Shown here: piece by piece, positions 11,383 to 40,741 of the stretch
Layout of the letters: each line of letters opens with the position of its first letter
How positions within the stretch are numbered: position 1 is the stretch's first letter
Source: Balneolaceae bacterium
GTDB taxonomy: Bacteria > Bacteroidota > Rhodothermia > Balneolales > Balneolaceae
NCBI GenBank assembly: GCA_016937115.1
Contig: JAFGWN010000186.1
Location: forward strand, 1-55,304
Direction of reading: 5' to 3'
DNA: 55,304 nucleotides
Translations under genes and position numbers: made by a program
Notes under the pieces: generated by a model
What the model was told of the DNA's origin: nothing
What the model saw: the letters and a program-made list of their open reading frames with translations, nothing else
Database searches by the model: none

Positions 11383-11424
11383 TTCACCAAACGGTAAAAT
11401 TAATTTAAAACGAACATTTTTTTG

Positions 11425-15210: not shown

Positions 15211-15291
15211 CTTAACAGACTTGCGGAGGCCCTTGAATAGTTACATTTGTCAATTGTAAGTGTATTTCAATTTATTGTCATTAAACCATTT

Positions 15292-20096: not shown

Positions 20097-20597
20097 ATGA
20101 AAACAAAGCTTACAATAATTTCCGTATTTATCTTGGTTTTAATTTTTAGCGTGGCGCCGATGGCGCAGGCGCAAAGTGAAGATGTCTCTTCCAACCTGGA
20201 AGTGTATAGAATTACTATGGTCAACGGGGAGGAAGTAGTAGAGCAGGTTACGACTATTTCACCCGGAGATACACTTGAGTATCGATTGACCTATACCAAT
20301 AACTTGTCCGACGCCATTTCTGATTTGCAGCCGATTCTTCCTATTCCACAAGGGGTACAATATCTGGAAAATACAGCAATACCCGAACTTGAAGAAGCCA
20401 GCCTGGATGCAGAGGGGAATACTTTTCAATCTTTACCCATTCAGCGAGAAGAAACACTTGAAAGCGGTCTGGTGGTAGAGCGTGAAGTGCCAGCCCGTGA
20501 GTATCGTCGCCTGCGATGGAGGGTTCCTGCCCTTGAATCACAGGCGTCGGTTATGCTAAGGGCACGCGTATGGGTTATAAACAGATCCAACCTGTAG
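20097..20597 (+). CDS. Small secreted single DUF11/CARDB-like Ig-fold protein
   Basis: 166 aa with signal peptide ...APMAQAQ. It has one DUF11-type core (PGDTLEYRLTYTNNLSDAISDLQPILPIPQGVQYLENTA ... LRWRVPALESQASVMLRARVWV). The ORF ends directly after the strand that internal domains of the neighbouring genes follow with two more strands. Confidence 0.7.
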   Translation: MKTKLTIISVFILVLIFSVAPMAQAQSEDVSSNLEVYRITMVNGEEVVEQVTTISPGDTLEYRLTYTNNLSDAISDLQPILPIPQGVQYLENTAIPELEEASLDAEGNTFQSLPIQREETLESGLVVEREVPAREYRRLRWRVPALESQASVMLRARVWVINRSNL

Positions 20598-20739
20598 GGT
20601 AGAGACATCAATTTCTAACAACTAAAATTCGGGGGTGCTTTTTCGGGTAAGCCTATAACGTACCCTTTCTGTATTACTCCCGGCTTTCAAATACGAACGA
20701 TTATAATCAAACCTAAACCTAACAACCAATAATCCAATC

Positions 20740-23382
20740 ATGGAAAAACAAATGACCACAATTACACGTACGTTGTGTGGCAAATTGTTTGGATTTTTCA
20801 CCCTTCTTATGGTGGTGGGGCTAACATTTATGCTGGCACCGAATAGTGCTCTGGCACAAACTGTCCCGCAAGCCGGTGAAGAAATCGAAAACCAGGCAAA
20901 TGCTACATATACGGATAATAATGGGAATCCAAGGACTGCACAGTCAAACACGGTAACAACCGTAGTTCAGCAAGTGGCAGCGGTAACCATTACCAATGGG
21001 GTAACTAAAAATGTTAGTCCCGGCGGATATGTAGACTTCAGCCATACCATTACCAATAATGGTAACGGTAACGACACTTTTGCCTTAGTTGCTACACCAA
21101 CGTCGGCAAATTTCACCTTTACAGATATAAAAATTTATCCCGATCAGGGAGGTGGAGTACCAGATCTTAATAACGAAATTACAGGTTCAACACCTACCAT
21201 AGGTGCAGGGCAAACATACAATATCGTTGTACGGGCTACGGTGCCGAGTTCTGCAGTAGACGGGGAATCTGAATCTATTGATATTACAGCTACCAGTGAC
21301 TTTGACACAGCTGAGTCAGCATCAACCGACCCGGATGATGTAGCTCAGGTAGAAGAAGATGCAGTGATCACGGTTACCAAAGATTACCTCGATAGCGGAG
21401 GCAATGTAACGACCGGGGGCGATGTAGGAGAAACGGTAACGGTACGCTTTAGTATCAGTAACACCGGTAACGCCGATGCTACCAATCTTTCAGTTACTGA
21501 TCCGCTGCCCACGGGGTTTGTTTATCAGCCCGGAACAGCCGTTTACCAAAGTGCAAGCCGTACGGATACCGACGGCGACAGTGACGGCTATAAATACAAT
21601 GCAACCAATCAGACCATCACGCTTACATCAGGAACCCTTGCCTCGGGTGCAACTGCGTCTTTAACCTTTGAGGTGGTTGTTAATACCGGTACGGAAGGCA
21701 CCACGATTTCGAACACCGGTACCTATAACCATGATGATTTGGGTACTGCGGAGACCACAAACCCGGCCCTGTTTAATGTTAATGAAAGATATGGCATTGA
21801 GACGGTGGATAATGTGGGAGCTGATGATGATGTGATTGAAGCAGGACCGGTGAATCAGGGTGCTGTTGTTGATTTCGTCAACCGGTTTGAAAATACAGGT
21901 ACGGCTTCTGATTCATACAAAATTACGCTTTCTGGGCAGAGTAACTATCCGAATGGTACAACGTTTACACTGCACCGGACAGACGGAAGCGGTACGGTAA
22001 CCAGCCAGATTACAGCAAATGGCGGTGGTGACTTTATAATAGGACCGATTGCTGAAGGTGCGCAATTCGAAGTTGTTGTACGGGCAGACTTGCCTAACAA
22101 TGCTTCAGGCGGACCATATAACTTGACGAAAACACTAACGTCTGTTAACGATCTATCCCAGTCGGCTGTTTTCACTGATCGATTAACGTCGGTTACTGCC
22201 AGTACGGTTGATGTTACGAATGATGAATCACTTGATACCAATTCGAGTGCAGCTGGTAATGGTGTCCAACCCACCGGTGAAGCCAGTGCCGTTACAACCA
22301 ATACAACAGACCCGAACACTACAACCAGCTTCACGCTGTTTATCAATAATACCAGCGGCGTGTCTGATACCTATAATCTGGCAGCAAGTACCGATAACAC
22401 CTTTGGAAGTGTCACGCTGCCTTCCGGATGGTCGGTAGAGTTCCGGAACACAGGGGGGACACCGATCACAAGTACCGGATCAATTCCTGCGGGTGGAGCG
22501 GTAGAAGTTACCGCCGTAGTTACGGTACCATCAAATGCAACTCCGGGAGCGCAAAGTATCTATTTCCGTGCACGATCGGGTGCTACGGGTGCCGCGGACG
22601 TGAAGCATGATGCTGTTAATGTTAATGCCGTTCGTAGCATAACATTGGTTAGCGACCAAGGTGACGATGTGGTGCCGGGTGGTTCTGTTACCTATACACA
22701 CACCTTAACAAATACAGGTAACGTCATTGAAAATGATTCCGGCACACCATTACAGGTGAGCCTGGCGCATACGCAGGCCAGTGGCTTCCAGTCAGTGGTA
22801 TTCCTCGATGTGAATAATGACGGCGTTATTGATGGCGGTGATACGCAGATAACCGGTGCCGGTGGTACCGTTACTTTACCCGGCGGTACATTAACAAGCG
22901 GTGCTTCGGTTCAGCTTCTGGTACGCGTTAGTGCAGGGACAGGTGTTACCGACGGAACGGTTAACAATACCACACTTACCGTACAAGGTACTGGTGTAAA
23001 CACGGTTAGCAATACCGACAATACTGAGGTGGTAACCGGTAATCTTGAGATCGTAAAAACACAGTCATTGTCACCAACCGGACCTTTTAGCGGCGATAAC
23101 GCCGGCGATCCGGATTTACAGGCCGATCCCGGTGATATTATTTATTACCGCATTGTGGTAACAAATAATGGCTCGGCCCCGGTTACAAACATTACGCTTA
23201 CCGATGACGTGCCCGACTTCACAACTTATGAAGTAGCGGCAACGGTATCAGGCGACGGTTCTCCTTCGATTGACAGCCAGCCCTCTGTGGGCGGTACTGG
23301 AATCATAACGGTGAGCGTAGCCCAGCTTAATGCCGGTCAATCCTTTACCATTGAATTCGCTGTGGAAATCAACAGCAATTAA
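20740..23382 (+). CDS. Secreted six-domain DUF11/CARDB-like repeat protein (candidate fibre shaft subunit)
   Basis: 880 aa with signal peptide ...NSALAQ. It has six repeats of the pattern x-I/V-x-K..G..v.Y.h.v.N.G(N)..a....v.D.LP.G (for example FSISNTGNADATNLSVTDPLPTGFVY and YRIVVTNNGSAPVTNITLTDDVPDFTTY). Confidence 0.85.
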   Translation: MEKQMTTITRTLCGKLFGFFTLLMVVGLTFMLAPNSALAQTVPQAGEEIENQANATYTDNNGNPRTAQSNTVTTVVQQVAAVTITNGVTKNVSPGGYVDFSHTITNNGNGNDTFALVATPTSANFTFTDIKIYPDQGGGVPDLNNEITGSTPTIGAGQTYNIVVRATVPSSAVDGESESIDITATSDFDTAESASTDPDDVAQVEEDAVITVTKDYLDSGGNVTTGGDVGETVTVRFSISNTGNADATNLSVTDPLPTGFVYQPGTAVYQSASRTDTDGDSDGYKYNATNQTITLTSGTLASGATASLTFEVVVNTGTEGTTISNTGTYNHDDLGTAETTNPALFNVNERYGIETVDNVGADDDVIEAGPVNQGAVVDFVNRFENTGTASDSYKITLSGQSNYPNGTTFTLHRTDGSGTVTSQITANGGGDFIIGPIAEGAQFEVVVRADLPNNASGGPYNLTKTLTSVNDLSQSAVFTDRLTSVTASTVDVTNDESLDTNSSAAGNGVQPTGEASAVTTNTTDPNTTTSFTLFINNTSGVSDTYNLAASTDNTFGSVTLPSGWSVEFRNTGGTPITSTGSIPAGGAVEVTAVVTVPSNATPGAQSIYFRARSGATGAADVKHDAVNVNAVRSITLVSDQGDDVVPGGSVTYTHTLTNTGNVIENDSGTPLQVSLAHTQASGFQSVVFLDVNNDGVIDGGDTQITGAGGTVTLPGGTLTSGASVQLLVRVSAGTGVTDGTVNNTTLTVQGTGVNTVSNTDNTEVVTGNLEIVKTQSLSPTGPFSGDNAGDPDLQADPGDIIYYRIVVTNNGSAPVTNITLTDDVPDFTTYEVAATVSGDGSPSIDSQPSVGGTGIITVSVAQLNAGQSFTIEFAVEINSN

Positions 23383-23406
23383 TTCTCAATCTATTAGCAA
23401 TGTGTG

Positions 23407-23435
23407 GAGAGAAGGGTGAAGCCTTCTCTCTTCTT
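23407..23435 (+). terminator. Intercistronic hairpin (possible partial terminator/attenuator)
   Basis: GAGAGAAGG-GTGAAG-CCTTCTCTC, a 9-bp stem, is followed by TTCTTA. It lies 25 nt after the 880-aa gene stop and 29 nt before the next ATG. Confidence 0.3.
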
Positions 23436-23463
23436 ATAAAAAATAATCATCCGGCTTTTTTTG

Positions 23464-26400
23464 ATGCGTAACCTGTTTTCACATATCTTATTTGTTGCAC
23501 TTGTACTGATTGCCTTGCCGGCTGTTGGTCAACAAGTGCCGCGGGCAGGTACGTCTATTGATAACCAGGCCAGTGGGTATCATTTTTTCCCTTCCTATTC
23601 CGATACCGTCTTTAAAAACTCCAATACCGTAAGTCTCATCGTACAGGAGGCAGAAAACATTAACCTTGTTCCCAATCACCGTGAGAAAATACGTATTGGG
23701 CAGGTAACAAGGTTTACCCATACGCTTTCAAATACCGGCAATGTACCGACAACCGTTACCATTACGGCCGAAAATATAATGGGTGATGATTTTGATTTGG
23801 ATAACATAATTTTATCTACGGTTGAAGAGGCATCAAAAATGGTATCCAATATCGGAATGGCTGGAGCATCGCAGGCTGCTTCTAAAGAAATAACGGTAGA
23901 ACTGGAACCCGGAGAGGTATTTGATTTCACTATTTCCCTGGTTGTGCCCAATGAGGCAAAGGCCCGTGATTTGGGTAAGGTTAAAATAGAAGCAAAGACC
24001 AGCAGCGGGAAACTTATTCTCAGTAATACGGATATTCTGGAAGTGCTTGAAGGACCCCGGGTAGAAGTGGTAAAGAAAGCAGCAGAAAGTACCGGAAAGC
24101 AGGGAGGAGAAATTACCTATCTTATTACCGGCAGTAACGAAGGGGATCAAACAGCCCGAACCTTTAATATCCAGGTTAATAATGTTCCCTTGCAAAAGGT
24201 AATTTTACGTGATCCGATTCCAGCTAATACGAGTTTTTTGCGGACATTAAGCACCGAAGGCGGGATGACGCTGTATCATACAATAGATGATCCTGAATTC
24301 ACCTATTCGACTACACTGCCGGATGATTTATCCCGGGTTGACGAATTTGCCGTAGCATACGATTCCATCGCACCGGGCCAGAAATTTGAGGCGCAGTTTG
24401 TGGTGGCCATTAATGAAAATGCTGCCGGACTTATTAAGAATATTGCCCAGGTTGACTATCGCGACCCTATTGATGACGAGCAGCAAAGTACAACGGCAGA
24501 AACAAACCTCGTGGAAGAGGTTTTACCTGAATATGAAGCAGAACTCGATTATTATACCGATGGTAACTACAAGACCGTTAGCCGCGCTGCCCGAATTTCT
24601 GGCCCGTTATTTTTACAAGCCAATGCTGCTGCCTGCAATGCGAGTAGTGCCGTCAAAGATACCACCGTTATCACTTTCAAATCGCGGGATACGGGAGACA
24701 TAGAAGAACTAACCGGGATAGAGACAGGGCATAATACGGGCTACTTTCGGGTTATGCCCAATGCACCACTGCGCGATGCGGCAAAGTTTACGGTACGCAA
24801 AAGAAATAACATTATAGAAACCGTAGGCGATGATGTTATCACAGCTACATTGCCGGCCTGCAGTGAAAACCAGGAGGCGGTAACGACACAGATTCACATT
24901 TCTCCATACGGCGTTATTTTTAACAGCGAAGATGGCGAGCCCGTTGCAAATACATCTATTACTCTTATTGATGTTACCGGAGAAGGTAACGGCGGTAATC
25001 CAGGGGCCCCGGCTACTGTATATAATGAGCAGGGCACCGAAAAGATTGAAAATACCCAGGAGACGGGAGAAGACGGAGAGTTTGAGTTTCCTTATGTGCA
25101 GCCCAGCACCTATCGTATTGAGGTAGAGCCTCCAACCGGTTGGCGTTTTGCTTCCATTGTTGAACCGCAGGATCTGCCCGGTAACCGGAAAGTTGACGAG
25201 TGGGCTTCGTACGGAAGGGAATTCGGGGTTACTGAACCCGGGCCGGTTGGAGTTGACGTACCGGTAGATCCCGCAACGGATGGCATTCTATTCATCGAAA
25301 AAACGGTATCAACTTCCGGGGCAGAAGTCGGTGATTTCGTCACCTATCAAATTACAGTGGCAAACAACGCATCTACGGTTGTTTCTGATGTTCGTGTTGA
25401 GGATACCTTGCCGTTTGGCTTCCGTTACGAAAAAGGAACCGCACGGCGGGATGAAAAACCCATTGCGGATCCCGATGGAGGGAAGGGACCATCACTCAGT
25501 TTTATGCTGGGCGATATTCAGGGCAATAGCTCGGTTACGCTTACCTACCGTGTACTGCTTGGCACCGGCGCGTTAAACGGCGATGGTACGAACCGCGCTG
25601 TAGCCGTAAGTAATGAAGGACTACAAATCACAAGTAACGAAGCCCAGAGTAAAGTTGAGGTACGCGGTGGCGTATTCACCGATAAAGGGTACATAATCGG
25701 TAAAGTATTTGCCGATGTAAACGAAAATGATGTGCAGGATCCCGGAGAGCCCGGCGTTCCCGGCGTTCGTCTTTATCTCGAAAATGGTTCATTCGTTATT
25801 ACCGATAGTGAAGGTAAATATACGTTTTATGGCATCAATCCCAATAAACACACGATAAAAGTTGACAACTATTCGTTGCCACAGGGCAGCCGGCTTGGTG
25901 TGCTCGATAACCGGCATGCCGGAGACCCTTCCACCCGGTTTGTCGATTTGAAAAATGGGGAACTGCACCGTGCCGATTTTGCTATTTGTGACCTCACGGA
26001 AGCGGCAAAACGTGAAATAGAAGACCGCCGCAAACAATTTAATATGGTAGTCAGCGACGAAGTGGGAACAACGCTTGAGCGAAATTTTTCGACCGATGCT
26101 CAAGACCCAACACGTGCTGTTCGCCGGGCGCAGGCAAGCGGCGTGGTTGACGGCGTCAAGCTCCCGGGTTTTCGTAAGCAAAAAAATGGTAGCTCCGCAT
26201 TGGCCCAATCTTCATCTGCTATCCTCAATGATACGGCAGCAGTTGAGCAGATAACACTTGAGGATGCTATGCTGGGTGAAAAGGCAGAAATTGGGTTTAT
26301 CGGTCTGCAGGATAACGATACCCTGCAAGCTGCACAGACAAGAATTTGGATAAAGGGCCGAAGCAGTACAGCACTTTCTCTTAGCGTTAATGGGGAGAAA

Positions 26401-29400
26401 ATTGGAGAAGATCGCATTAGTAAACGAAGCAAGCTCACGACACAAAAACTCCAGGCGCAAGAATATATCGGTGTTAATCTTACACCCGGTAAAAATACAC
26501 TTACCCTTACGGCAATCGATCCGTTTGGTAACGAGCGGGGACGGAAGCAGATAATGGTTTTTGCTCCCGGCCATATCCACAAAATAAAGCTCACAACGCC
26601 TGTTAATGACGTGCCGGCCGATGGTATTTCAACAGCCGTCGTAAAAGTTTGGTTGCAAGATAAAGAAGGCGTTGCCGTCAATGCAAAAACACCGGTTACC
26701 CTTGATGTCTCAATCGGTGAATGGTTGGTGAAAGATCTGGATTCGTCAACACCCGGTACCCAAACCTATGTTACCGGTGGGGAAGCAGAATTTGAGCTGC
26801 AATCGACTATCGAACCACAGGATGCTGATGTTCGCGTGTCAATCGGGGTGATGGAAGCAGAAACCGTGGTAAGTTTCTTGCCCGATCTTCGTCCCCTTAT
26901 TGCCGCAGGTATCATAGAAGGGACAATTCGATTAAACGAAGGTGCCAGTATTGTTCCGGCCCGCAGCGCCGACGGTTTTGAGCGGGAGCTAAAGTCGCTT
27001 TCATACAGCACCGATGATTATACGGCTGATGCCCGTGCGGCCTTTTTCCTGAAAGGGAAGATTAAAGGAAATATGCTGTTGACGGCGGGTTTTGATTCTG
27101 AAAAAGATGATGACCGCCTGTTTCGTGATATTCAGCCCGATGAGTTTTACCCTGTCTATGGTGAATCATCGGTAAAGGGATACGATGCACAGTCAACCGG
27201 ACGGCTGTACGTGCGGGTTGATCACAAGAAGACCTATGCTCTTTATGGCGATTTTGTAACGCAGGAGCGGCATCTGGCCAAAAGCCTTGGTGAATACAAC
27301 CGTACCCAGACAGGGATTAAACTGCATTACGAAAAAGACTGGGCACGTATCAATGTGTTTGGCAGCCAGGCGACTTCGTTACAGCGCATCGATGAGTTTC
27401 GGGGGCAGGGTATTTCGGGACCGTACGAACTGCAATTCGATAATATTTTGATTAACAGCGAACAGGTTGAGATCATAACGCGCGATCGCAATCAGCCATC
27501 TATTATTCTCGAACGGGAAAAACTGGTGCGTTTCCGCGATTATGTAATAGAACCGTTTACGGGCAATATTCTCTTTAAAACAGCTGTGCCGAGTGTTGAT
27601 CCAAAGCTGAATCCTGTTTTTATCCGGGTGACCTACGAAGTGGAAAGCGGGGCGGAAGATTACTTGATCGGCGGAGCTGATGGACAGATCAAGATTACGG
27701 ATTTCTTTGAAGTGGGCGGCTCATTTGTAGAAGATCGCAATCCAGAAGACAACTACCGTCTTAAAAGTATCAACTCCACATTACGACTTGGTGAAAATAC
27801 GGTATTGATTGGGGAAGCAGCCGAAAGCACGACCGAGCTTGAAGGTACTGGCCGGGGCGGACGCATTGAATTGCAGCATCGTGGCCAAATCGTCGATGGC
27901 CGTTTGTATGCCGGCCAAACCGACGAAGATTTTGTCAACCGCGCGTCTCAGCTTGGTCAGGGGCGGACCGAAGCCGGCGCACTCGGATCCATTAAACTGA
28001 CGAACTCAACTAATTTAAAAGGAGAGTTTCTATACAGCAGCAACGACACGCTGGGTACCAATACCACCGGCGGTTTGCTTAACATTCAGCAGCGTATTAC
28101 GAACGATATCCGTGCTGAAGTAGGGGTTCGTTACTCTAAGCAAAACAGATCGCAGTCGGGGATATCGGGTGATGAAGATATCACCAATAAAAATATTCGC
28201 GGTAAATTAACGGTGGGTGTTCCCAAGGTAAAAGGAGCAACTATTTATGGAGAGTACGAGCAGGATATTAATGAAAGCGACCGGAAGCTTATTGCTGTTG
28301 GCGGCGATTACCAGCTTAAAAATCGAGGTAGAATCTATGCGCGTCACGAGTTTATATCCAGTGCGCTCGGCCAGTATACGTTGAACAGTTCCACAGAACG
28401 CCAAAATACGGTTGTTGGTATTGATGCCAATTATATGCAAAACGGCCAGGTGTACAGCGAGTATCGTATGGATGATGCGTTTGACGGCCGCAATGCACAA
28501 GCGGCGATCGGGCTGCGCAATCGTTTTGAAATTCGTGAAGGGTTCGGCATCAATGCCGGGTTGGAGCGTATCTTTAGTTTAACGGGTGATCCACTGAATG
28601 AAGGGACAGCTATATCAGCCGGTGTTGACTATACTGCAAATCCGCTTTGGAAAGGCACCGCCCGGGCCGAAGCTCGTTTCAGCAATAATGGCGCCAGTTA
28701 TTTGAGCACGCTGGGCTACGGTCGAAAAATAGATCCCAACTGGACGTTTTTAGGTAAGAATATATTCAGCCTGCAAGCATCGTCAAATCCCGGAACCGCG
28801 GATCGTATCCAGCAGCGTCTGCGGTTTGGTTTTGCGTATCGTGAAACAGCTCAAAACCGCTGGGACGGGCTGGGCCGCTACGAATTAAAGTACGAAAAGA
28901 ATGGACAGTTTGGCGGGGACTATAGTCGGTTGGTTCATATTTTCTCGACTAATGTGAACTATCATCCAAGTGCCGACTGGACACACACTGGTCGTTTTGC
29001 AGCAAAAAAAGTAGCAGAATCATCAGCCGAGTTCGATTCAAAAAGTTTGACGATGCTTTTGAGTGCCCGCAGCATTCACGACATCACCCGAAAGTTAGAC
29101 GGCGGTATTAATGCAAGTATGATGACAGATGCCGGTTTTAGCAGCCAAAATTATGGCGTAGGGGTTGAGCTGGGATACATTGTACACCGTAACCTGCGTC
29201 TGGCTATCGGATTTAATGTATTTGGATTTGAAGATCGTGACCTGGCTGCATCCAGCTTTACCCGAAAAGGCGTATATCTTGGATTCAGTTACAAGTTTGA
29301 TGAGCGTCTGTTCCGCGGTCTTATGCCTGATGAAGACAAGAATGATTACCTGTATGCCACTTGCGATGAGTGTGCTGAACCGTCGACAAAGGCTGAAGCA

Positions 29401-30345
29401 CTGCCGTTACCAGACCCCGAGTTAGATTTTAAAGGATTGCAGCCGGTGATTATAGAAACGCCCGATTTTAAGGTAGCAACCCGTAAACCACTTGTCACTC
29501 TTCCAAAAGATATTCACTTTGGCTTTGATAAGAATGAGATTAGTGAAGCTTCTAAACGAATGCTCAATCTCGTGGCTCAGTTCCTGAAAGACCAGGATGC
29601 GTTTAAACTGGAAGTTACCGGCCATACCGATAGTCAGGCTTCGTACCAATATAATTTAAATTTATCCAAGCGGCGCGCAGTGTCAGTTCGTGAATACCTC
29701 GTTAGTCAAGGCGTTGATGCGAGCAAGGTAACGTTCAAGGGATGGAGTTTTGACGATTCAAAAACAGACCGGGAAGAGGATGCCATCGACCGATCCATAA
29801 ACCGCCGGGTTCAACTTAATATGGATATCCCAAACGTAAATGTTCGGTTCATCCCACAAATCAATGATCTGCAGATTGAAAAGCAGCGACTTGATGGGAT
29901 GCAGAATACGGTGTATGTATTGGATACCCGCATTGACGCCGTGCCGGATCGTATTCATTTAAACGGAACTGATTTACGTGTATCTACAAAATATATGTTG
30001 AATCGAATTGCGATGGCGCTGAAATATCATCCTGAGGAGAAAGCGACATTTAGTTTTGCAGAATCACAAGTGGAACAGCAGCAAATAGTTGCAGATTTTC
30101 TGCAACAGGCCGGCACTGATATGAATCGCATCATTATGCAGGCAGTACCGGCTTCAACAAACGAAGATACACGAGCGAAAGCAGTAGCTATCGATTACGG
30201 TGAGCATTCACAATTGATATCTGTGAAACAAACCGATGATTTAAGGTTGACCGATAACGCAAAAATTGAAATGATTTTGGATAAAATGATCGAACTGCTG
30301 AAGCTGCGCGAAGATCACTTATTGATTACTAAAAACCGTAAATGA
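23464..30345 (+). CDS. Giant outer-membrane protein: DUF11 repeats + Cna-B/SdrD-B-like + Big_1 + large beta-barrel + OmpA-like C-terminus (candidate anchor)
   Basis: ATG at 23464 (the track uses TTG at 23461), with signal peptide ...ALPAVGQ. Domain evidence is listed in the sub-features below. Confidence 0.85.
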   Translation: MRNLFSHILFVALVLIALPAVGQQVPRAGTSIDNQASGYHFFPSYSDTVFKNSNTVSLIVQEAENINLVPNHREKIRIGQVTRFTHTLSNTGNVPTTVTITAENIMGDDFDLDNIILSTVEEASKMVSNIGMAGASQAASKEITVELEPGEVFDFTISLVVPNEAKARDLGKVKIEAKTSSGKLILSNTDILEVLEGPRVEVVKKAAESTGKQGGEITYLITGSNEGDQTARTFNIQVNNVPLQKVILRDPIPANTSFLRTLSTEGGMTLYHTIDDPEFTYSTTLPDDLSRVDEFAVAYDSIAPGQKFEAQFVVAINENAAGLIKNIAQVDYRDPIDDEQQSTTAETNLVEEVLPEYEAELDYYTDGNYKTVSRAARISGPLFLQANAAACNASSAVKDTTVITFKSRDTGDIEELTGIETGHNTGYFRVMPNAPLRDAAKFTVRKRNNIIETVGDDVITATLPACSENQEAVTTQIHISPYGVIFNSEDGEPVANTSITLIDVTGEGNGGNPGAPATVYNEQGTEKIENTQETGEDGEFEFPYVQPSTYRIEVEPPTGWRFASIVEPQDLPGNRKVDEWASYGREFGVTEPGPVGVDVPVDPATDGILFIEKTVSTSGAEVGDFVTYQITVANNASTVVSDVRVEDTLPFGFRYEKGTARRDEKPIADPDGGKGPSLSFMLGDIQGNSSVTLTYRVLLGTGALNGDGTNRAVAVSNEGLQITSNEAQSKVEVRGGVFTDKGYIIGKVFADVNENDVQDPGEPGVPGVRLYLENGSFVITDSEGKYTFYGINPNKHTIKVDNYSLPQGSRLGVLDNRHAGDPSTRFVDLKNGELHRADFAICDLTEAAKREIEDRRKQFNMVVSDEVGTTLERNFSTDAQDPTRAVRRAQASGVVDGVKLPGFRKQKNGSSALAQSSSAILNDTAAVEQITLEDAMLGEKAEIGFIGLQDNDTLQAAQTRIWIKGRSSTALSLSVNGEKIGEDRISKRSKLTTQKLQAQEYIGVNLTPGKNTLTLTAIDPFGNERGRKQIMVFAPGHIHKIKLTTPVNDVPADGISTAVVKVWLQDKEGVAVNAKTPVTLDVSIGEWLVKDLDSSTPGTQTYVTGGEAEFELQSTIEPQDADVRVSIGVMEAETVVSFLPDLRPLIAAGIIEGTIRLNEGASIVPARSADGFERELKSLSYSTDDYTADARAAFFLKGKIKGNMLLTAGFDSEKDDDRLFRDIQPDEFYPVYGESSVKGYDAQSTGRLYVRVDHKKTYALYGDFVTQERHLAKSLGEYNRTQTGIKLHYEKDWARINVFGSQATSLQRIDEFRGQGISGPYELQFDNILINSEQVEIITRDRNQPSIILEREKLVRFRDYVIEPFTGNILFKTAVPSVDPKLNPVFIRVTYEVESGAEDYLIGGADGQIKITDFFEVGGSFVEDRNPEDNYRLKSINSTLRLGENTVLIGEAAESTTELEGTGRGGRIELQHRGQIVDGRLYAGQTDEDFVNRASQLGQGRTEAGALGSIKLTNSTNLKGEFLYSSNDTLGTNTTGGLLNIQQRITNDIRAEVGVRYSKQNRSQSGISGDEDITNKNIRGKLTVGVPKVKGATIYGEYEQDINESDRKLIAVGGDYQLKNRGRIYARHEFISSALGQYTLNSSTERQNTVVGIDANYMQNGQVYSEYRMDDAFDGRNAQAAIGLRNRFEIREGFGINAGLERIFSLTGDPLNEGTAISAGVDYTANPLWKGTARAEARFSNNGASYLSTLGYGRKIDPNWTFLGKNIFSLQASSNPGTADRIQQRLRFGFAYRETAQNRWDGLGRYELKYEKNGQFGGDYSRLVHIFSTNVNYHPSADWTHTGRFAAKKVAESSAEFDSKSLTMLLSARSIHDITRKLDGGINASMMTDAGFSSQNYGVGVELGYIVHRNLRLAIGFNVFGFEDRDLAASSFTRKGVYLGFSYKFDERLFRGLMPDEDKNDYLYATCDECAEPSTKAEALPLPDPELDFKGLQPVIIETPDFKVATRKPLVTLPKDIHFGFDKNEISEASKRMLNLVAQFLKDQDAFKLEVTGHTDSQASYQYNLNLSKRRAVSVREYLVSQGVDASKVTFKGWSFDDSKTDREEDAIDRSINRRVQLNMDIPNVNVRFIPQINDLQIEKQRLDGMQNTVYVLDTRIDAVPDRIHLNGTDLRVSTKYMLNRIAMALKYHPEEKATFSFAESQVEQQQIVADFLQQAGTDMNRIIMQAVPASTNEDTRAKAVAIDYGEHSQLISVKQTDDLRLTDNAKIEMILDKMIELLKLREDHLLITKNRK
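25698..25866 (+). other. SdrD-B/Cna-B-like domain inside the 2294-aa protein
   Basis: GKVFADVNENDVQDPGEPGVPGVRLYLENGSFVITDSEGKYTFYGINPNKHTIKV matches the classic SdrD B-repeat pattern. Confidence 0.75.
26578..26880 (+). other. Big_1 (invasin/intimin-type bacterial Ig-like) domain
   Basis: KIKLTTPVNDVPADGISTAVVKVWLQDKEGVAVNAKTPVTLDVSIGEW...TYVTGGEAEFELQSTIEPQDADVRVSIGV matches the AdG-s-a-v-a-v-D-G-pv pattern of Big_1. Confidence 0.7.
26881..29310 (+). other. Predicted large (>20-strand) outer-membrane beta-barrel region with a soluble insert
   Basis: About 800 aa of short amphipathic strands ending in aromatics (IRAEVGVRYS, ATIYGEYEQ, LIAVGGDYQL, RIYARHEFI, QVYSEYRMD, AISAGVDYTA, QQRLRFGFAYRE, GLGRYELKYEK, GVGVELGYIV, LRLAIGFNVFGF), with a terminal GVYLGFSYKF. 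A non-amphipathic insert (GPYELQFDNILINSEQVEIITRD...NILFKTAVPS) follows the first few strands. Confidence 0.55.
29505..29825 (+). other. OmpA_C-like peptidoglycan-binding domain
   Basis: IHFGFDKNEISEASKRMLNLVAQFLKD...LEVTGHTDSQASYQYNLNLSKRRAVSVREYLVSQGV...INRRVQL shows the canonical OmpA/MotB C-terminal motifs (TD...N..LS..RA..V). A second, degenerate copy follows at about 29950-30160. Confidence 0.85.
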
Positions 30346-33300: not shown

Positions 33301-36300
33301 CGCTTGAGGCTTTCAATTCAGCCGGAAGTAAAATTACTGTTAATGACTGGGTGACCGGCCAGGGTACCGACGGCGGTGTTTGTACGAACAGTGTAAACCT
33401 TGTTTATACTAACGGGAATACGACGATTGAATTCCGTCCGACCGTTTCCGGAGATCCATCGTGTTCATCATCTTCAACCCCCGTATGGTTCCGCATTACC
33501 GATGATAATGTCGCTCGCATCGAAATTCGAAAGGTTGCCGCCGAGCCCGATAATATTCATCTTGGTATGGCTGTCGCAGCCGATTTCGGCGATGCCCCCA
33601 ATGTATATAACACGCGCTATAACTCACGTGCCAATCCACCGGCATTTCACCTGCTTAATAACGACGCACCGAACACCGTCTACTTTGGCTCTGGTGTGGA
33701 CGGCGACGGTAACGGCCGCCCGAACACCAATGCTACGGGTGATGATAATGATTCCGGTCTCGACAGCGGCGATGATGAAGACGGCATTGCCTCATTGCCA
33801 ACACTGACGGCCGCTGATACGCAATACAGTATTACACTTTCCTGTACGGATGGCGGCGCAGCAGGCGGCTGGATTGATTTTGATCAGTCTGATTCATTTG
33901 ACTTCAATGAGTACGCTTCCGGTACCTGCTCGTCGGGCAGTGTAACCTTAACATGGACCGGCCTGTCCGGGTTGAATACGGGGCAAACATACGCTCGCTT
34001 CCGGATTGCTTCCAGCAGTGCGGAGATCGCCGAACCGGCAGGATATGCAACCGACGGCGAAGTGGAAGATTATACGTTGACTATCAGCCCGGCTGCGCAA
34101 ACCGATCTGGAAATTGTAAAAGCAGTGGATAATTCCACACCGATTGAAGGTGATCATATCAGCTTTACGGTTAAAGTTGTGAATAACGGATCTGATAACG
34201 CTACGGATGTTGAAGTTACCGATCAATTACCGGCCGGATTGACCTACGTTTCATCAACCCCGCAGCAGGGTACCTACAACAACAGTACCGGAATTTGGAA
34301 CGTGGGCAATATTAGTGCCAACGATTCCACATCACTGGTTCTCACTGCTTCAGTCAATAGCGCAACCTCTGGACAAACGATTACCAACACTGCTTCGGTA
34401 ACAGCGGTTAATGAAAGTGACCCCGTACCTTCCAATAATTCGGCATCATCGGGTATCACCGTTGTGCAGCCGGCGACGGACATCTCCATTGTTAAAATTG
34501 TTGACAATGCGGTACCTATCGAGGGAGAAACGGTAACGTACACCGTATCGGTAACTAATGAGGGGCCCCGCAATGCCACCAACCTTTCTGTAATCGATCA
34601 GTTACCTACAGGCATTACGTATCAATCATCTACTGCAAGCAAGGGATCGTATAATCAATCTACCGGTATTTGGAGTATAGGAACATTAAATAATGGGGAA
34701 TCTGCTTCTTTGACCATTCAGGTCAGCATTGATGATGAGACTGTAGGCAGTGATATTGCAAATACGGCGGCGCTCAACAGCCTGGATCAAACCGATCCTA
34801 ATGACAGTAATAACAGTTCTACAGCAACGATCGATATTGTTCCGCCGAATGAACCCACCACCTGTAACGACCGCCCAACCCTTTCGTTCGAAAGCCCAAC
34901 GCTGATAAGCGGATCGGCCGGACAGGTAGGCGCTGTCTACCGCTTTAATGATGTTTATCCGGCGTCGGCTAATGAGGTTTATGCCCGGGTAGAAATTTTG
35001 ACACTAAACAATATAATTTTACATGATATTGATAATGCACCGTCATATACAGGCATTGATGATGAGCTTTCACCCTTCATTGAAAATAATAGTGAAAGTG
35101 ACGGTTATATCGATTTTAGAATATCTTTCTTTGATGCCAGTACGGATCAGCCCAAATATATGTCCTTTGCTGCAACTACCGCCGATATTGACGGTACCAG
35201 CAGTGGCGGAGGGGACCTGAAGGATTTTGTGGGATATGAGAGTCTGACCTCATTTACGTGGGAACAAAATACGCAGCTTATACAGGGTGCCAGCGGCAGT
35301 TTTTTAACATTTGAATCAGCCAACTTCCAGGATACACAGCCGACCTATAGTAATTATACAGATTATATGGTCTATGCGACCTATACCAACGAGCCGACAT
35401 TCAGGTTGCGTACCGGCATTAAAGCCAACGGAATGACGGATGACCGAACCATATCCGTGAGTTTTAACCCATGCAAAATTAATGAATTCAACAACCCCGT
35501 TTCCGAAAATATTACCGATGTCGGCATCACAAAAACAGTGGACGATGTGACTCCGCAGACAGGAGAAACGATAACATATACGATTAATGCCGAAAACACC
35601 CGGGCCAATGCCGTAGGTGGTGTGGAAATAACTGATCAACTGCCTAACGACCTAACCTTTGTTTCTGCAACTCCAAGCAAGGGAACCTATAATAGTACTT
35701 CCGGGATTTGGGATATTGGTAATTTCTCGGGATTGGAATCAGCAAATTTGATTATCAAGGCTACGGTAAATTCCGGAACAGAGGGCGAAACAATAAGCAA
35801 CACTGCCACTTTGACTAACAGTTCCGGCACCGATCAAAATCAATCCAATAATTCCGCTTCTGCAGATATCCAGGTATTTGATCCGGGTTCGGGCATGCAA
35901 TGTACCGAGCCGCCCTATTTCTCATTTGCCAATCCCAACCTCGAAGCCGGTTCATCGGGACAGGTCGGCGCGGTATACCGGTTTAGCAATGTGCGGTCGG
36001 GCATCGATGCATTGGTAAAAATTACGGCCAGGAATAATGCCCAGCTTAACGAGATAGATTCAAACCAAGGGGTAAGCAATGCCAACTTCAGTCCGCTGTA
36101 TGCTCTGCAAAACGGCAACAATACCAGCGGATACATCGAATGGGAAATCAAGTTTGTACAATCCGGCACGTTTACTCCAATCAAGCAGACGTTTGCCATG
36201 ACGGCACTGGACGTTGACGGCTATGCAACAGGAGGTTCAAGCATCAGGGATTATCTTAGTTTTTCTCAGAATCAGTCGAATACAGTTGAAGCAAGCACAG

Positions 36301-39300
36301 AGCTTACCCTTTCTTCCCATCCGCCGTTTCAGCGATTTGCATCAACCAATACAAACGATTCTCCAACGGGTATCCTGGATACCGATTTCATGGTATATAT
36401 TGGCTACAATTATACCTCCGTGCTGAATATTCGTACCGGATCCATTGCTACCGGCGGCTACACAAGTCAGCGGCTGGTTGATATCGATTTTCGCCAGTGT
36501 CTGGACCAGGAATTCGATAATCCGGTGGTTACTATGCGTAATGCCGATATCGCGGTCAACAAAACTACCGACAATGCGAATCCGCTGGCGGGTGAAACCG
36601 TCAACTTTACGGTTTCTGTTACCAATAATGGTCCTGAAAATGCAACCGAGCTGGATATTAACGAGACGCTGCCAGCGGGCTTGTCACTTGTATCAGCAAA
36701 TCCCAGCCAGGGGACGTATAACCAGCTCACAAAAATATGGGCAGTTGGCACGTTGAACTCCGGCAATTCAGCTACGCTGGATCTGGAAACAACGGTAAAC
36801 CAGGGAGCCGATGAGGATATGATCAATAAAGCGTTTGTAAAAGGGCTAAACCAGGCTGATCCCGCCGTGGCTAATGATACTTCTGAAGTTGCTATTGCGG
36901 TTAGTGTACCTGTCGAAGGAATCGTATTTGAAGATAAAACCGGCAATGCTGTCGCCGACGGTGATACCAACTTTGGAGATGCTACCGGTGATCAACAGGC
37001 AAAAGCCAATGTTAAGATACACTTGTTTAAAGATGGGGGTGATGGCACTGCGAATGGTGCCGATGATACCTTTATACAGACTGTGCAAACCAACAGTATC
37101 GGGCAGTATAATTTCCAGGTTGGTGAAAATGGGGACTACTGGATAGCGGTTGACTCCCGAACCGGCGGGTTGTCCAACGGCACTACATGGGCCGAACAGA
37201 CCTATGCTCCTGCGGGCGGGCTTTGTACCGATGGAGCCGGTGTCACCACAACCCGATCAACCGCTGGTGCCTGTTTCGGCGGCCGCCGCGGGACGGCCTC
37301 TGACTTGATTTCCGCTACCCCGGCCGGCAGCGATCTTGCCAATGCCGAACATGTGGCTAAAGTAACGATGAGTGGTTCGGAGATTACAGGTATCAATTTT
37401 GGTTTCAGTTTCAACGTGGTTACCCATACGGGTGACGGTGATGACGACGCTACTGCAAGCCGGTCGACCCAGGGCTCGCTGCGGCAGTTCATTCAAAATG
37501 CCAATAACATTGCGGGTGCCAATGCCATGCGTTTTGTACCTGCGGTAGCTACAAATGCTTCGGGTGGCGGTGGTAACTGGTGGAGTATCACCATTGGTTC
37601 GGCACTGCCAGCGGTTACGGGACCGCTCACCACGATTGACGGTACGGCGTTTGATCTGAATAATCCGGCCAGCGAACTGAATACGAACACTGGAAGTACA
37701 GGTACTGGTGGTAATGTAGGAGTTGATCAGCTGCCGTTGAATACCTTTGAACTAAAGGAATTAGATATTAACCTGAATGATATCGGTAATAATGCCTTCC
37801 AAATTAATAGTACAGGGGTAGTCAATATCCGTGATTTAGCACTCTATAATAATACACAGTTATTGCAAGTGTCGCAGGTATCGAACGGCGTCGTTGAGCG
37901 CAACTTACTCGGCAATAATGCCGGCGGATCCCTTGGTAACCTTAATCTGATTAGTAACAGTAGCATTGTCTTTACCGGCAATGCTTCAACTTCCATTGAG
38001 ATTCGGAAAAATAATATCAGTCCCAACTGGATTGATGGCGTCAAATCAAATAATGCCAATGCCCTTATTGACCTGAACCAAAATGAAATTCATAGTATCG
38101 GCGGGCTTAGTTCTCAGGGCGATGGAGTAGCGGGTATTGGAACATGGACGATAGAGCAAAACCTGATTTATAATAACGGACAAGATAACAATCAATCCCA
38201 TAACGGCGGCAGTGGTATTGAGATTGGCGGCAGCAGCGGATCCTCCCAAAATAATGTGATTCGAAATAATACTATTCGAGACAACAAAATTGCCGGTATT
38301 ACAATTTTGAATAATGTATTAAGTACGACCATTCGGAAAAATATCATCAACAATAACGGAACCAACTATACATCGGGGCCTGCGCTGGGCGCCGGAGTGC
38401 GGCTGACGACACCGGCATCACAAACTCAGCAGGGCATCAACATCAGTCAGAACAGTTTCTATGGTAACTATGGGTTGGCGATCGATATTGTGAAAGATTA
38501 CAGCGGATCAGGCCAGGCCGACGGCGTGAATCCCAACGACGGTGCGTTGCAGGCGGCTTCATCGGTACCTAACCGCGGGCTCGACTACCCGGTATTTACG
38601 CTGACAACGCTGGAGGGTTCAACGCTGCATATCGAAGGGTATGTAGGTACGTTTAACAATCGTCTTGCCGGACCGTTTACGATCGAAATTTATAAAGCCG
38701 ATAATGATGGCAACAACGACGGGCTTATTGAGCAGGGCGGATCGCTGGTTCGTCCGCATGGGGAAGGCCGGACGCTTCTGAGTACTATTACCACCAATCC
38801 TGACGGTTCATTCAGTGAGGATATTACCGTTGGTGGGTCGATAAATGTGGTGATTAACGATCGGATTACGGCTCTTGCGTTCAGCGGGAGTGGCAATACA
38901 TCAGAATTCAGTTCCAATCAGCGTGTGGTACCAACGGGCGTTGCTGTGAGCGGATATGTATATCACGATACGAATCACAACGGAACCCGGAACAGCGGTG
39001 AATCCGGTCTCGAATCGGTAACGATGGTACTGTATAACCAGAACGAAAATAACTGTAAGAGCGTGCGGACGGATGCAAATGGTTTCTACGAGTTTACCAA
39101 TGTACTGAACGGAACTTACCAGCTGATTGAAGCCTTTGGTGAAAGTATTCCTACCCCGGATATTTGTACACCGGCAGCGGCCGATCCTGTGGGATTTATT
39201 TCCACAACCACCAACAGCCGGTCGGTAACGATCAACAACCTTCCGGAGAATCAGGATTTTGGTGATTTTGAAGGATCGAGTATCAAAGGAAATATATTTA

Positions 39301-40346
39301 ATGACAACGGAATCGGAACCGGCGGCACGGCTAATGATGTGGTTAAGAATGGCGGAGAGCCGGGCATCAATGCCACGGTGGTAAAAGCGTTGAGCGGCAG
39401 CGGAGCTCCCCTGGATCAGACGACGGCCTCGGCCGGTGGAAATTATACGTTATATGTAGCTAAATCTCAGGTTCCTTCCGGCGGAACGGTCATAATAAGG
39501 GAAACAAACAAAGCCAACTTTATAACCATAGGCGGAAGCGCGGGAACGACAGGGGGGACCTATAGTAAACCCAATGATGAAGTGAGTTTTACCAATACAG
39601 TAGGTGCCATTTATACCGGCGTCAACTTTGCAGATGTGGAACAAAGCCGCCTGCTGACTGATGGCGAACAGAATATTCAGCCGGGCGGAACAGCCACCTT
39701 CCAGCACCAGTTCCAGGCAAGAACGGCGGGAGCTGTCACCTTTACAACATCTACGGCAACCGATCCGGCCGGCAACACCATTCCGGTAATCTTATACCGG
39801 GATATAAACTGTAACGGAGCGGTCGATTCGGGTGAGCCGGTACTTGACGGCTCGGGGCCTGTGTCTGTTACTACGGACCAAACTGTGTGCCTGGTTCTAA
39901 AAGTGACCATCCCCCTGGGAACAAGTAATGGCGTTATAAGCACTACAACAGTAGCAGCGTCGATGGATTTTGCCAATACCAACCCGGTTATACAGCAATC
40001 GCTCTCCCGCACCGATGTGGTGAATGTTACCGAAACAAACGGTGGACTGTCACTCATCAAAGCCGTTGACAAAGCGACAGCAGAGCCTGGTGAAGTGCTG
40101 ACCTACACCATCACCTACGAAAACAACGGAAGTGATCCCATCAACACGCTTGAAATTGCAGACAACGTGCCAGCATTTACCACTTTTAGTTCAGCCAGCT
40201 GCGGTGTGCTGCCCAACAACCTTACCAACTGTACGATTAATGCGCCGGCGGCCGGGCAAACAGGAGCCATAACGTGGACGTTTACAGGCACGATGGCTCC
40301 GGGAACCTCCGGCGCGGTTACCTATCAAGTAACGATCCAGGATTAA
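30342..40346 (+). CDS. Giant 3334-aa secreted multidomain surface protein (candidate adhesive tip)
   Basis: The ATG overlaps the upstream TGA (ATGA at 30342-30345). It has signal peptide ...NVASIIAQ. Domain evidence is listed in the sub-features below. The C-terminus ends in a DUF11-type domain, and I recognise no T9SS, LPXTG, PEP-CTERM or RTX-type signal. Confidence 0.85.
   Translation: [3334 protein letters not shown]
30444..31400 (+). other. DUF2341 + LamG/concanavalin-like (Laminin_G_3) module
   Basis: [24 protein letters not shown]...GYDIIFSSD...[24 protein letters not shown]...SIYMFYGN fits DUF2341. YHLNN...[29 protein letters not shown]...GTVSAWIKT...WHHVVFTR...LTYVNG...[13 protein letters not shown] fits the LamG_3 pattern. 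Confidence 0.75.
31422..32950 (+). repeat. Tandem coding repeat: (FN3 + SwmB-type repeat) x2 plus one extra SwmB-type repeat
   Basis: The unit is about 610 nt. [26 protein letters not shown]...[31 protein letters not shown] + [27 protein letters not shown]...[25 protein letters not shown] is repeated as [26 protein letters not shown]...[31 protein letters not shown] + ...[22 protein letters not shown]. A third SwmB-type unit then ends ...[22 protein letters not shown]. Confidence 0.8.
33575..34090 (+). other. GEVED-type domain
   Basis: It begins [11 protein letters not shown]..., contains acidic DGDGNG / [15 protein letters not shown] stretches and ends [14 protein letters not shown], the eponymous GEVED motif. 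Confidence 0.65.
34090..34850 (+). other. Two complete DUF11 domains
   Basis: [51 protein letters not shown]...[31 protein letters not shown], followed by [51 protein letters not shown]...[28 protein letters not shown]. Confidence 0.85.
34843..35520 (+). other. Uncharacterised ~225-aa domain, copy 1 ([13 protein letters not shown] motif)
   Basis: [32 protein letters not shown]...[14 protein letters not shown]...[10 protein letters not shown]...[17 protein letters not shown]...SVSFNPC. It is paralogous to 35881-36545. Confidence 0.6.
35881..36545 (+). other. Uncharacterised ~225-aa domain, copy 2 ([13 protein letters not shown] motif)
   Basis: [32 protein letters not shown]...[14 protein letters not shown]...[10 protein letters not shown]...[17 protein letters not shown]...DIDFRQC. 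It is collinear with copy 1. Confidence 0.6.
37780..38500 (+). other. Right-handed parallel beta-helix repeats (NosD/pectate-lyase-like)
   Basis: There are repeated ~22-aa turns: [54 protein letters not shown] and [10 protein letters not shown]. Confidence 0.7.
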
Positions 40347-40351
40347 TTATT

Positions 40352-40741
40352 ATGAAAAAACCAGAATACAGCGATGAACAAATGAAATCAATTTTTATTG
40401 TTGATGATGCGAAATGGCACAACATTTTGCTTGAAAAATTACTCGGTGATTGCGGGTATGAAGTTAAATCATTTACCAGTGGCTATGTGCTTTTGGAAAA
40501 CCTGAAAGAAGAGCCGCCGCACCTGGTTATTTCTGATATTGATATGCCTGATATTAATGGGTTTGCCCTCTGTAAAATGATCAAGGAGTTGCCCGAAGGA
40601 GCTGATGTACCCGTGCTGTTTGTATCGTCGCTCGGGGAAGAAGAAGTGCGGGTCAAGGCCGAGAAAAACGGCGCGATTGGTTTTATACAGAAACCGTTTG
40701 CCAAACAGCCGCTGCTGGAAGTGGTGGCACAAAAGCTATAA
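40352..40741 (+). CDS. Stand-alone response-regulator receiver (CheY-like) protein
   Basis: The ATG at 40352 lies 5 nt after the giant gene stop (the track start at 40274 overlaps the giant gene). REC motifs are present: IFIVDD, LVISDIDMPDINGF (phospho-acceptor Asp), VLFVSS and FIQKPF. Confidence 0.85.
   Translation: MKKPEYSDEQMKSIFIVDDAKWHNILLEKLLGDCGYEVKSFTSGYVLLENLKEEPPHLVISDIDMPDINGFALCKMIKELPEGADVPVLFVSSLGEEEVRVKAEKNGAIGFIQKPFAKQPLLEVVAQKL

Follow-up and report, generated by a model that had tools for sequence, protein, structure and literature searches.

A conserved gene module with complementary split CLIPPER domains and a large outer-membrane barrel, probably building a cell-surface fibre in Balneolaceae and other bacteria

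Positions 20097-40741 of the Balneolaceae contig JAFGWN010000186.1 (assembly GCA_016937115.1) are occupied by five tightly packed genes on the forward strand, referred to here as P1 to P5; the whole stretch of DNA analysed, 55,304 nucleotides (nt) long, is called the window below. According to an earlier note on this DNA, these genes could form a self-contained system for assembling a DUF11-based surface fibre or adhesin. The open reading frame (ORF) positions given in that note were borne out, together with the spacings: P1 and P2 are 142 nt apart, P2 and P3 81 nt if the ATG at 23464 is taken as the start, P3 and P4 overlap by 4 nt (ATGA), and 5 nt separate P4 from P5. P1 (20097..20597) encodes a secreted, CLIPPER-like single-domain protein of 166 amino acids (aa), P2 (20740..23382) an 880-aa putative shaft subunit with both a donor and an acceptor, P3 (23464..30345, with 23461 as an alternative start) a 2294-aa putative base or anchor subunit, P4 (30342..40346) a 3334-aa putative tip adhesin, and P5 (40352..40741) a stand-alone receiver domain of 129 aa.

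In regard to domain content, most of the domains named in the earlier note were recovered by Pfam. P2 holds DUF11, NPCBM_assoc and DUF7507, and P3 contains DUF11, SdrD_B, a weakly matched Big_1 and an OmpA domain at aa 2020-2108. In P4, DUF2341, Laminin_G_3, three copies of SWM_repeat, GEVED, five DUF11 domains (408 bits) and SdrD_B were found, along with a C-terminal domain resembling DUF7619/7927/7507, while the FN3 and beta-helix modules ascribed to this protein were not recovered at E<=0.01 and stand as sequence impressions outside Pfam support. P5 corresponds to Response_reg (PF00072, 90.5 bits), and P1 has no Pfam match, being hit only by TIGR01451, and weakly. The Sec signal peptides attributed to the four structural proteins were seen again in the translations, judged by eye rather than by a predictor.

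The DUF11 domain, renamed CLIPPER, has a CnaA-like fold in which a Lys of the first strand and an Asn of the last strand form an isopeptide bond, with an Asp as catalyst (PMC12617251). Internal CLIPPER domains of the locus carry this whole triad, as in domain 2 of P2, where K214, D254 and N325 are each at least 90% conserved. Five complete CLIPPER repeats are present in P4, and the internal motifs map onto the structure 9IFR, whose Lys715 lies in the strand VDVVK and whose Asn806 belongs to VVNKVTA; both motifs recur in the acceptors and donors described below.

The terminal domains of P2 (23035..23379; aa 766-880) and P4 (40041..40343; aa 3234-3334), here termed acceptors, are also CLIPPER-like and keep the Lys (l.l.K; Lys773 in P2, Lys3240 in P4) and the Asp (D.tPa.T; Asp822 and Asp3274). 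In both proteins the chain stops right after the F strand (..tF.V.I..), the last residues before the stop codon being ..FTIEFAVEINSN in P2 and ..AVTYQVTIQD in P4. The profile match accordingly ends at position 96 of 114 for P4 and 86 of 114 for P2, the strand with the Asn is missing, and neither terminal domain brings the full triad together within one polypeptide. Both Lys and Asp were found in 37 of 41 P2 and 16 of 17 P4 C-termini from the related loci described below, as well as in 115 of 120 P2 homologues from databases. Between the window and a Steroidobacter locus (L002), the P4 acceptor is kept and the rest of P4 is unrelated.

Peptides that complement these unfinished domains are located at the N-termini of P2 and P3. 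Directly after its signal peptide, P2 has a hairpin (20857..20973; aa 40-78, QTVPQAGEEIENQANATYTD..SNTVTTVV) related by homology to the final strands of CLIPPER domains, with N51 encoded at nt 20890-20892. The mature N-terminus of P3 is formed by a corresponding hairpin (23530..23643; QQVPRAGTSIDNQASGYHF..SNTVSLIV), with its Asn at nt 23563-23565. In the alignment, the isopeptide Asn of 9IFR falls within the same I.N.A strand as the Asn of these donor hairpins. Over the loci, the mature N-termini of P2 and P3 follow the consensus A(P)PAGt.IgN[QT]A.atY.D...SN.V.t.V. When a hidden Markov model (HMM) was built from these P2 and P3 N-terminal peptides and used to score the same set, 15 bits or more were reached by 41/41 P2 and 41/41 P3 N-termini, and by 0/41 of P1 and 0/41 of P4. 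Among 77 aligned P2 homologues, I49, N51, A53, A55, D59, S69 and N70 are invariant, and the donor motif is present in all 120 of the database homologues.

The two halves also agree in register. In the intact domain 2 of P2, 71 residues separate D254 from N325, and in trans the 58 residues from D822 to the C-terminus and the 12 from the mature N-terminus to N51 add up to 70. Joining the halves in silico was evaluated with TIGR04226 (RrgB_K2N_iso_D2), a curated NCBIfam model based on the Lys-Asn isopeptide domain D2 of RrgB, with a cut-off of 30 bits. Alone, the acceptors scored 21.6 bits (P4; profile positions 8-105 of 123) and 25.7 bits (P2; 16-106). With the P2 donor appended, the scores rose to 31.5 bits for P4 (8-122) and 36.1 bits for P2 (16-122), and the P2 acceptor with the P3 donor reached 32.0 bits (16-119). 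The P4 acceptor with the reversed P2 donor gave 25.0 bits (8-116), and the cut-off was passed only by acceptors joined to donors.

Likewise, in an in-house HMM of 184 positions made from a complete internal domain, the terminal domain of P2 was matched only to position 135, and to about position 172 once the P2 donor was added. Across the loci, this addition brought the P2 acceptors a mean gain of 11.1 bits (more than 5 bits in 34/41), and the P3 donor a gain of 8.9 bits (more than 5 bits in 33/41), the controls with shuffled and reversed peptides giving -0.8 and +0.8 bits, respectively. For the P4 acceptor, the P2 donor added 9.1 bits (shuffled -1.2, reversed -0.4), its DUF7619 match increased from 21.2 to 29.8 bits, and a match to DUF7507 increased from 27.2 to 35.0 bits after the donor had been appended. 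A sequence search of the PDB with the acceptor-donor chimera returned chance matches only. AlphaFold2 (AF2) modelled monomeric P2 as a chain of beta-sandwich domains with a predicted local distance difference test (pLDDT) value of 89.4, for which Foldseek retrieved generic multi-immunoglobulin (Ig) proteins only and no specific relative.

From N- to C-terminus, P3 consists of the signal peptide, the donor hairpin, a stalk of CLIPPER/SdrD_B/Big_1-like domains, a large beta-barrel, the OmpA domain and a second OmpA-like tail. The AF2 model, based on an alignment of 17 sequences (pLDDT 72, predicted template-modelling score 0.48), predicts an outer-membrane barrel of about 30-31 consecutive antiparallel strands at 27667..29292 (aa ~1403-1944), ending in the beta-signal-like GVYLGFSYKF. 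The barrel of about 800 aa assumed in the earlier note thus shrinks to about 540 aa in the model, and the OmpA-like domain assumed there was confirmed as an OmpA-family peptidoglycan-binding domain (29518..29784; PF00691, 68.3 bits against a cut-off of 27.2). The size class of about 30 strands is that of LptD, MtrB and SlpA, and is larger than the 24-strand usher. Foldseek comparisons of the barrel gave only generic large barrels (LptD, TonB-dependent receptors, SlpA, MtrB and FimD, the last with 0.29) at template-modelling scores of 0.2-0.3, and no Pfam family covers it. The barrel family has more than 260 homologues, with E values down to 1e-260, which are named hypothetical or 'TIGR01451 repeat protein'; most P3 homologues cover only 65% of the query, which is the barrel alone. 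The OmpA domain is present in P3 of Balneolaceae, and most of the proteobacterial and verrucomicrobial versions end at the barrel. The most conserved stretch of the whole family lies just before the barrel (27400-27666; P3 aa ~1314-1402), reads ..RAAFFLKGK..RLFRDIQPDEFYPVYG.SS..G.DAQST.RLYVR.. and receives pLDDT values under 50 in the AF2 model; it might serve as a plug or bind a partner.

P1 shows the motifs PGD..EY...Y.N, L.A.LPIP and EYR.LRW, and its chain, too, stops once the F strand is complete. An N-terminal donor and the catalytic Asp are both absent, L.A.LPIP being the motif that is conserved instead, and the Lys is variable. Appending a donor to P1 resulted in a weak gain of 3.8 bits in the in-house HMM. 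In P4, on the other hand, the N-terminal and central modules vary, comprising in the window DUF2341, LamG, SWM repeats, GEVED, the five CLIPPER repeats and SdrD_B.

A scan of genome contigs with the single barrel sequence as query gave no match, and a scan with the barrel alignment, limited to one genome per species, succeeded in finding 164 relatives, of which 80 loci were fetched. The lineages represented in these loci are Balneolaceae, Chitinophagales (a metagenome-assembled genome (MAG) with a partial locus only), Verrucomicrobiota, Beta- and Gammaproteobacteria, Gemmatimonadota, Nitrospirota and Entotheonella, and the relatives include the isolates Noviherbaspirillum suwonense DSM 26001 and Collimonas antrihumi DSM 104040. 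The order P1-P2-P3-P4 was found in about 45 loci with complete upstream DNA, with P1 of 160-200 aa, P2 of about 860-1030 aa and a very variable P4 of 700-3300 aa. With some 45 independent loci sharing one gene order, chance can hardly account for the arrangement. The order was also seen in two contigs looked up directly: the Steroidobacter locus encodes proteins of 166 and 870 aa, a barrel protein of 1654 aa and a protein of 899 aa, a metagenomic contig encodes proteins of 147 and 916 aa followed by the barrel protein in two ORFs, and P4 of the closest Rhodohalobacter locus (L004) has 874 aa.

The expectation of a conserved five-gene order was therefore confirmed for a four-gene core, P1 to P4, which is syntenic beyond Balneolota, and not for P5, which lies outside the core. 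A stand-alone receiver gene directly 3' of P4 was found only in Balneolaceae (L006, L011 and L012), and P5 is a lineage-specific regulatory add-on of this family. The proposal of a self-contained module was supported by the synteny, and was strengthened further by the complementary CLIPPER halves in P2, P3 and P4. The locus encodes a widespread, uncharacterised four-protein kit that probably builds a cell-surface fibre. When neighbouring ORFs within 10 kb on either side were clustered, no additional family exceeded 12 of the 84 loci, the recurring ones being regulators, and no chaperone-usher, TpsB, type I secretion system (T1SS) or sortase gene is conserved within this distance. Outside Balneolaceae, genes for response regulators, cyclic-nucleotide-binding or sensor-like proteins often lie just upstream of P1 (L053-L055, L065, L070, L074 and others), an indication that the module is commonly under two-component control, with wiring that differs from lineage to lineage.

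Database searches further showed 148 homologues of P2, uniform in length (840-960 aa) and always generically named, with carriers such as Fodinibius salinus (52% identity), Gracilimonas mengyeensis, Polaromonas, Acinetobacter nectaris, Lysobacter psychrotolerans and Leucothrix. The P1 family comprises 465 clusters (50% identity) at E<=1e-10, with nearly all members between 150 and 220 aa. Some loci presented deviating structures. In L001, the closest metagenomic P3 homologue (7499-14683) is split into ORFs of 833 and 1560 aa by a stop codon at the boundary between stalk and linker (..KKG, stop, MHRADFAVC..), which may reflect a frameshift, an error in the sequence or a genuine split. A 3149-aa ORF of a Burkholderiales MAG (L058, 2990-12439) combines a P2-like N-terminal part of 800 aa with a P3-like remainder; as the matches overlap, it was rejected as a natural P2-P3 fusion and is probably a chimeric assembly artefact. 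Stand-alone giant proteins of the barrel family, without P1 and P2 upstream, occur in L066 (Longimicrobiales), L069 (Gemmatimonadaceae), L075 and L083 (Nitrospirota). They range from 2760 to more than 4359 aa and have up to about 24 CLIPPER repeats; in L069, the sole intact N-terminus examined among them, no clear donor was seen. It may be that these proteins preserve the ancestral state of the fibre, before its division.

In regard to sorting and secretion, the signals that could not be recognised in the earlier note were not found in model searches either. No model for a C-terminal domain (CTD) of the type IX secretion system (T9SS), PEP-CTERM, LPXTG, repeats-in-toxin (RTX) or two-partner secretion (TPS) signal matched the full proteins at E<=1, and none of them, the T9SS models TIGR04183 (type A) and TIGR04131 (type B) included, gave a match to the isolated C-terminal domains at E<=10. 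As no cryptic CTD was found in the 880-aa and 3334-aa proteins, the claim that they lack such a signal survives, and a reading of their C-terminal domains as cryptic T9SS CTDs was rejected on the basis of the HMM results and of the phyletic spread of the module, whose C-terminal domain of this kind is also present in Proteobacteria and Verrucomicrobiota. The absence of chaperone-usher, TpsB and T1SS genes from the locus was likewise seen in the Pfam/NCBIfam scans, where neither the usher PF00577 nor the PapD-like chaperone families PF00345 and PF02753 appeared in the output for P1-P5 and the flanking genes. Nothing points to sortase dependence, as P2 (..AVEINSN) and P4 (..VTIQD) end without LPXTG or a hydrophobic tail and no sortase family is present among the scanned window genes or the conserved neighbours. 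For type V secretion, there was no match to PF03797, PF11924, a TPS domain or a TpsB-type protein, and the barrel of P3 has about 30 predicted strands. A T1SS is not indicated either: RTX and ABC transporter/membrane fusion protein matches are lacking in the locus and its flanks, and the signal peptide of P4 is of the Sec type, judged by eye.

We lean, with modest confidence, towards a surface fibre of the composition P4-(P2)n-P3, whose subunits would be joined via complementary split CLIPPER domains. According to this model, P1 to P4 would all be exported by Sec, three of them as structural proteins and one as an accessory. P3 would be the base, with the barrel in the outer membrane, the OmpA domain holding peptidoglycan, and the Ig-like stalk ending in a free donor hairpin. 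P2 would constitute the shaft; its unfinished C-terminal CLIPPER domain would accept the hairpin donated by P3 or by a further P2 subunit, leaving its own N-terminal hairpin free for the next subunit. P4, having an unfinished C-terminal domain and no donor, would end the chain as the tip and display its variable adhesin modules. Each joint would combine the Lys and catalytic Asp of an acceptor with the Asn of a donor, and the completed domain would probably lock itself by a spontaneous Lys-Asn isopeptide bond, a natural, sortase-free ligation similar to SpyTag/SpyCatcher. As an acceptor-like protein without the catalytic Asp, P1 would most likely bind donor hairpins reversibly, in the role of a cap or of a chaperone in the periplasm. 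The outer membrane would most likely be crossed through the wide P3 barrel, which would also serve as the anchor, and we infer that the export of P2 and P4 depends on it. P5 would act as a regulator. With P4 and P1 as acceptors only, P2 as both, and P3 as donor only with the barrel, the N-terminus of every subunit would be distal, as is the case in fibrillar adhesins.

Several observations weigh against this fibre model. The N-terminal hairpin of P2 is modelled by AF2 as confident beta structure (pLDDT 91-95), and it could pack in cis on the first or on the C-terminal domain of its own chain. Covariation between the donor and the C-terminal domain, measured as mutual information and compared with other regions of P2, was not above background in 161 P2 sequences (Neff 108), in a test weakened by the high conservation of the donor. 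It would be possible, on such grounds, that no fibre exists and that the genes encode separate, co-regulated envelope proteins, namely two adhesins, one autotransporter-like adhesin and a small protein, with the hairpin bound in cis and the truncated C-terminal domains stable as they are. The confident AF2 model of the whole P2 monomer, including both its hairpin and its C-terminal domain, the lack of a trans signal in the covariation and the existence of the stand-alone barrel adhesins agree with such a scenario. We nevertheless regard it as quite improbable, as the invariant isopeptide Asn of the hairpin has no Lys partner upstream in the same chain, and only the last domain of P2 and of P4 is devoid of the Asn strand. 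In addition, P4 keeps its terminal domain while its other parts change, and the donor and acceptor valencies match a tip-shaft-base pattern in about 40 loci.

Other observations concern the nature of the joints. The Lys motif is missing from 4 of the 41 P2 acceptors, which means that a covalent bond would not be universal, and one of these four (L068, from a Verrucomicrobiaceae MAG) has lost both residues at the C-terminus of P2, with K changed to I and D to N, and retains the Asn in its donors; a joint loss of Lys and Asp would be expected if both residues serve one function. Alternatively, then, the fibre could be strand-complemented with non-covalent joints, as in chaperone-usher pili, the Lys, Asp and Asn being inherited or needed for packing. 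Such joints would also fit the apparent design of P1 for non-covalent binding, and many CLIPPER domains are known to be free of the bond (PMC12617251). We consider non-covalent joints unlikely, given that N51 is invariant in 77/77 sequences, that K773 and D822, residues on the other end of the chain, are at least 90% conserved, and that the score of the joined halves exceeds the threshold of a model for Lys-Asn isopeptide pilins.

A further group of objections is related to P1, to the barrel and to export. The role of P1, possibly that of a chaperone or cap, is deduced from its missing residues and from the weak gain on donor addition; the barrel model is of moderate confidence and without a specific structural relative; the passage of the 3334-aa P4 with its folded modules across the outer membrane would be hard to account for; and the fibre model as a whole is a prediction. 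Related to this, it is conceivable that the fibre is formed as proposed, but with P3 as the anchor only, P2 and P4 being exported by a general pathway, such as the type II secretion system (T2SS) or, in Balneolaceae, the T9SS, and captured at the cell surface on the exposed donor of P3. The large folded modules of P4 (LamG, and repeats that look beta-helix-like by eye) would be hard to pass through the barrel, which would already hold the chain of P3 itself, and substrates of the T2SS are not recognisable from sequence. On the other hand, the searches for a T9SS CTD and for other sorting signals were negative, no secretion gene is conserved nearby, and the module is present in phyla that are not known to have a T9SS. 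Export by a general pathway is for these reasons somewhat doubtful, and a P3 barrel serving as both passage and anchor is the version of the fibre model that we prefer.

The surroundings of the locus in the window are formed by unrelated housekeeping genes, with msrA upstream on the opposite strand and a YbaK-like gene downstream, and the upstream neighbours in other Balneolaceae differ from these. Promoter and terminator scans gave results at or near shuffle expectation and left the operon ends undefined, the sole feature being a weak hairpin with a 5-bp stem just 3' of P5. The dnaA gene (44543-45988, reverse strand) is located some 4 kb further downstream, in the vicinity of recF-like and enolase genes, which places the window near the chromosomal origin. 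Further upstream, on the forward strand, two adjacent genes (6630-8144 and 8196-10949) encode transporters of the TLC/major facilitator superfamily type, similar to ATP/ADP translocases, the second one fused to HEAT repeats. They are followed by tandem paralogous ORFs of about 1265 aa each (11422-15210 and 15247-19065, forward strand), in both of which a calcineurin-like phosphoesterase domain (Metallophos) at the N-terminus is fused, unusually, to an Omp85-family barrel at the C-terminus. These genes were considered as a TpsB-like partner of the module and rejected, as they are not conserved beside it in other Balneolaceae.

If the fibre model is true, double-membrane bacteria would have one more way of building pili besides the chaperone-usher, type IV, type V, curli and conjugative pathways, namely a fibre that ligates itself without a sortase and brings its own outer-membrane barrel. 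Covalent pili, in turn, are regarded as Gram-positive and sortase-dependent. The model would also account for the surface display of huge DUF11 repeat proteins without a sorting signal in environmental Proteobacteria, Verrucomicrobiota and Balneolota, and the split domains would represent natural orthogonal tag/catcher pairs for protein engineering. Both the barrel family and the P1 family are uncharacterised and occur in culturable strains. Full-text literature searches retrieved no description of the system, and a survey of CLIPPER proteins took them as monomeric fibrillar adhesins, with no mention of split domains or of the barrel (PMC12617251).

Among known systems, chaperone-usher pili resemble the proposed fibre in that a single operon encodes the tip, the shaft, the base that terminates the fibre and a large barrel of the outer membrane. 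Their Ig-like subunits lack the last strand and are completed by the N-terminal extension of a neighbour; the sequence logic of the locus is analogous, with pairing in trans as a proposal and with a different fold family. They also have a small periplasmic Ig-like helper, a part possibly played here by P1. However, the locus has no usher, PapD-like chaperone or match to a fimbrial pilin family, and its base subunit carries the barrel, of about 30 strands, in the same chain. Its subunits are multi-domain rods of 880-3334 aa instead of pilins of about 15 kDa, the joints would consist of CnaA-like CLIPPER domains that contain an isopeptide triad, and the proposed helper would accept a strand instead of donating one. 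Type V pili (FimA/Mfa1) of Bacteroidota come from a related host group and likewise combine a strand-exchanged fibre with a tip, shaft and anchor encoded in one operon. Their pilins are proteolytically activated lipoproteins that donate a C-terminal strand, and their anchors are lipoproteins as well, whereas none of these features, lipoprotein nature, proteolytic activation or a C-terminal donor, was seen in the locus.

Sortase-assembled pili (SpaA, RrgB) have CnaA/CnaB-type stalk domains with Lys-Asn isopeptides and the same tip-shaft-base logic, and the reconstituted joint matches the very model built on domain D2 of RrgB. Unlike them, the module has no sortase, LPXTG or pilin-motif Lys, belongs to a two-membrane host and has a barrel as the anchor, and its bond would form spontaneously in a complemented domain instead of by transpeptidation. 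SpyTag/SpyCatcher is also a split domain with a tag strand carrying one of the bonding residues, but it is man-made, from a CnaB domain, and forms a Lys-Asp bond. Donor-strand complementation combined with spontaneous isopeptides between subunits is known from the threads of Sulfolobus acidocaldarius and from BsaA of Clostridium perfringens (PMC9715654; PMC11580942). However, the folds of these 'exchange and lock', TasA-like fibres are unrelated to those of the present system, their subunits are single-domain, and an outer membrane, a barrel anchor and a separate tip or base protein of this kind are lacking in them.

The closest in composition are single-chain CLIPPER adhesins, such as B9T28_05395 of Acinetobacter silvestris (PDB 9IFR), with a stalk of such domains, an N-terminal adhesin and a C-terminal OmpA-like anchor, and the stand-alone barrel proteins of L066 and L069, which share the barrel family and have many CLIPPER repeats. 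There, a single polypeptide provides tip, stalk and anchor, and none of the CLIPPER domains is unfinished, whereas in the locus studied here the chain is divided among three genes at splits between the F and G strands of CLIPPER domains. Strand-complemented Ig-fold fibres are already known, and there is a substantial chance that the locus may deserve a new pilus class once tested. Such a class, which we put forward tentatively and with somewhat less than even confidence, would be distinguished by head-to-tail ligation of multi-domain subunits through split CLIPPER isopeptide domains, a dedicated barrel of about 30 strands for threading and anchoring, a strand-accepting mini-chaperone (P1) in place of the strand-donating one of the chaperone-usher pathway, and a hitherto unnoticed occurrence in hundreds of lineages of at least six phyla.

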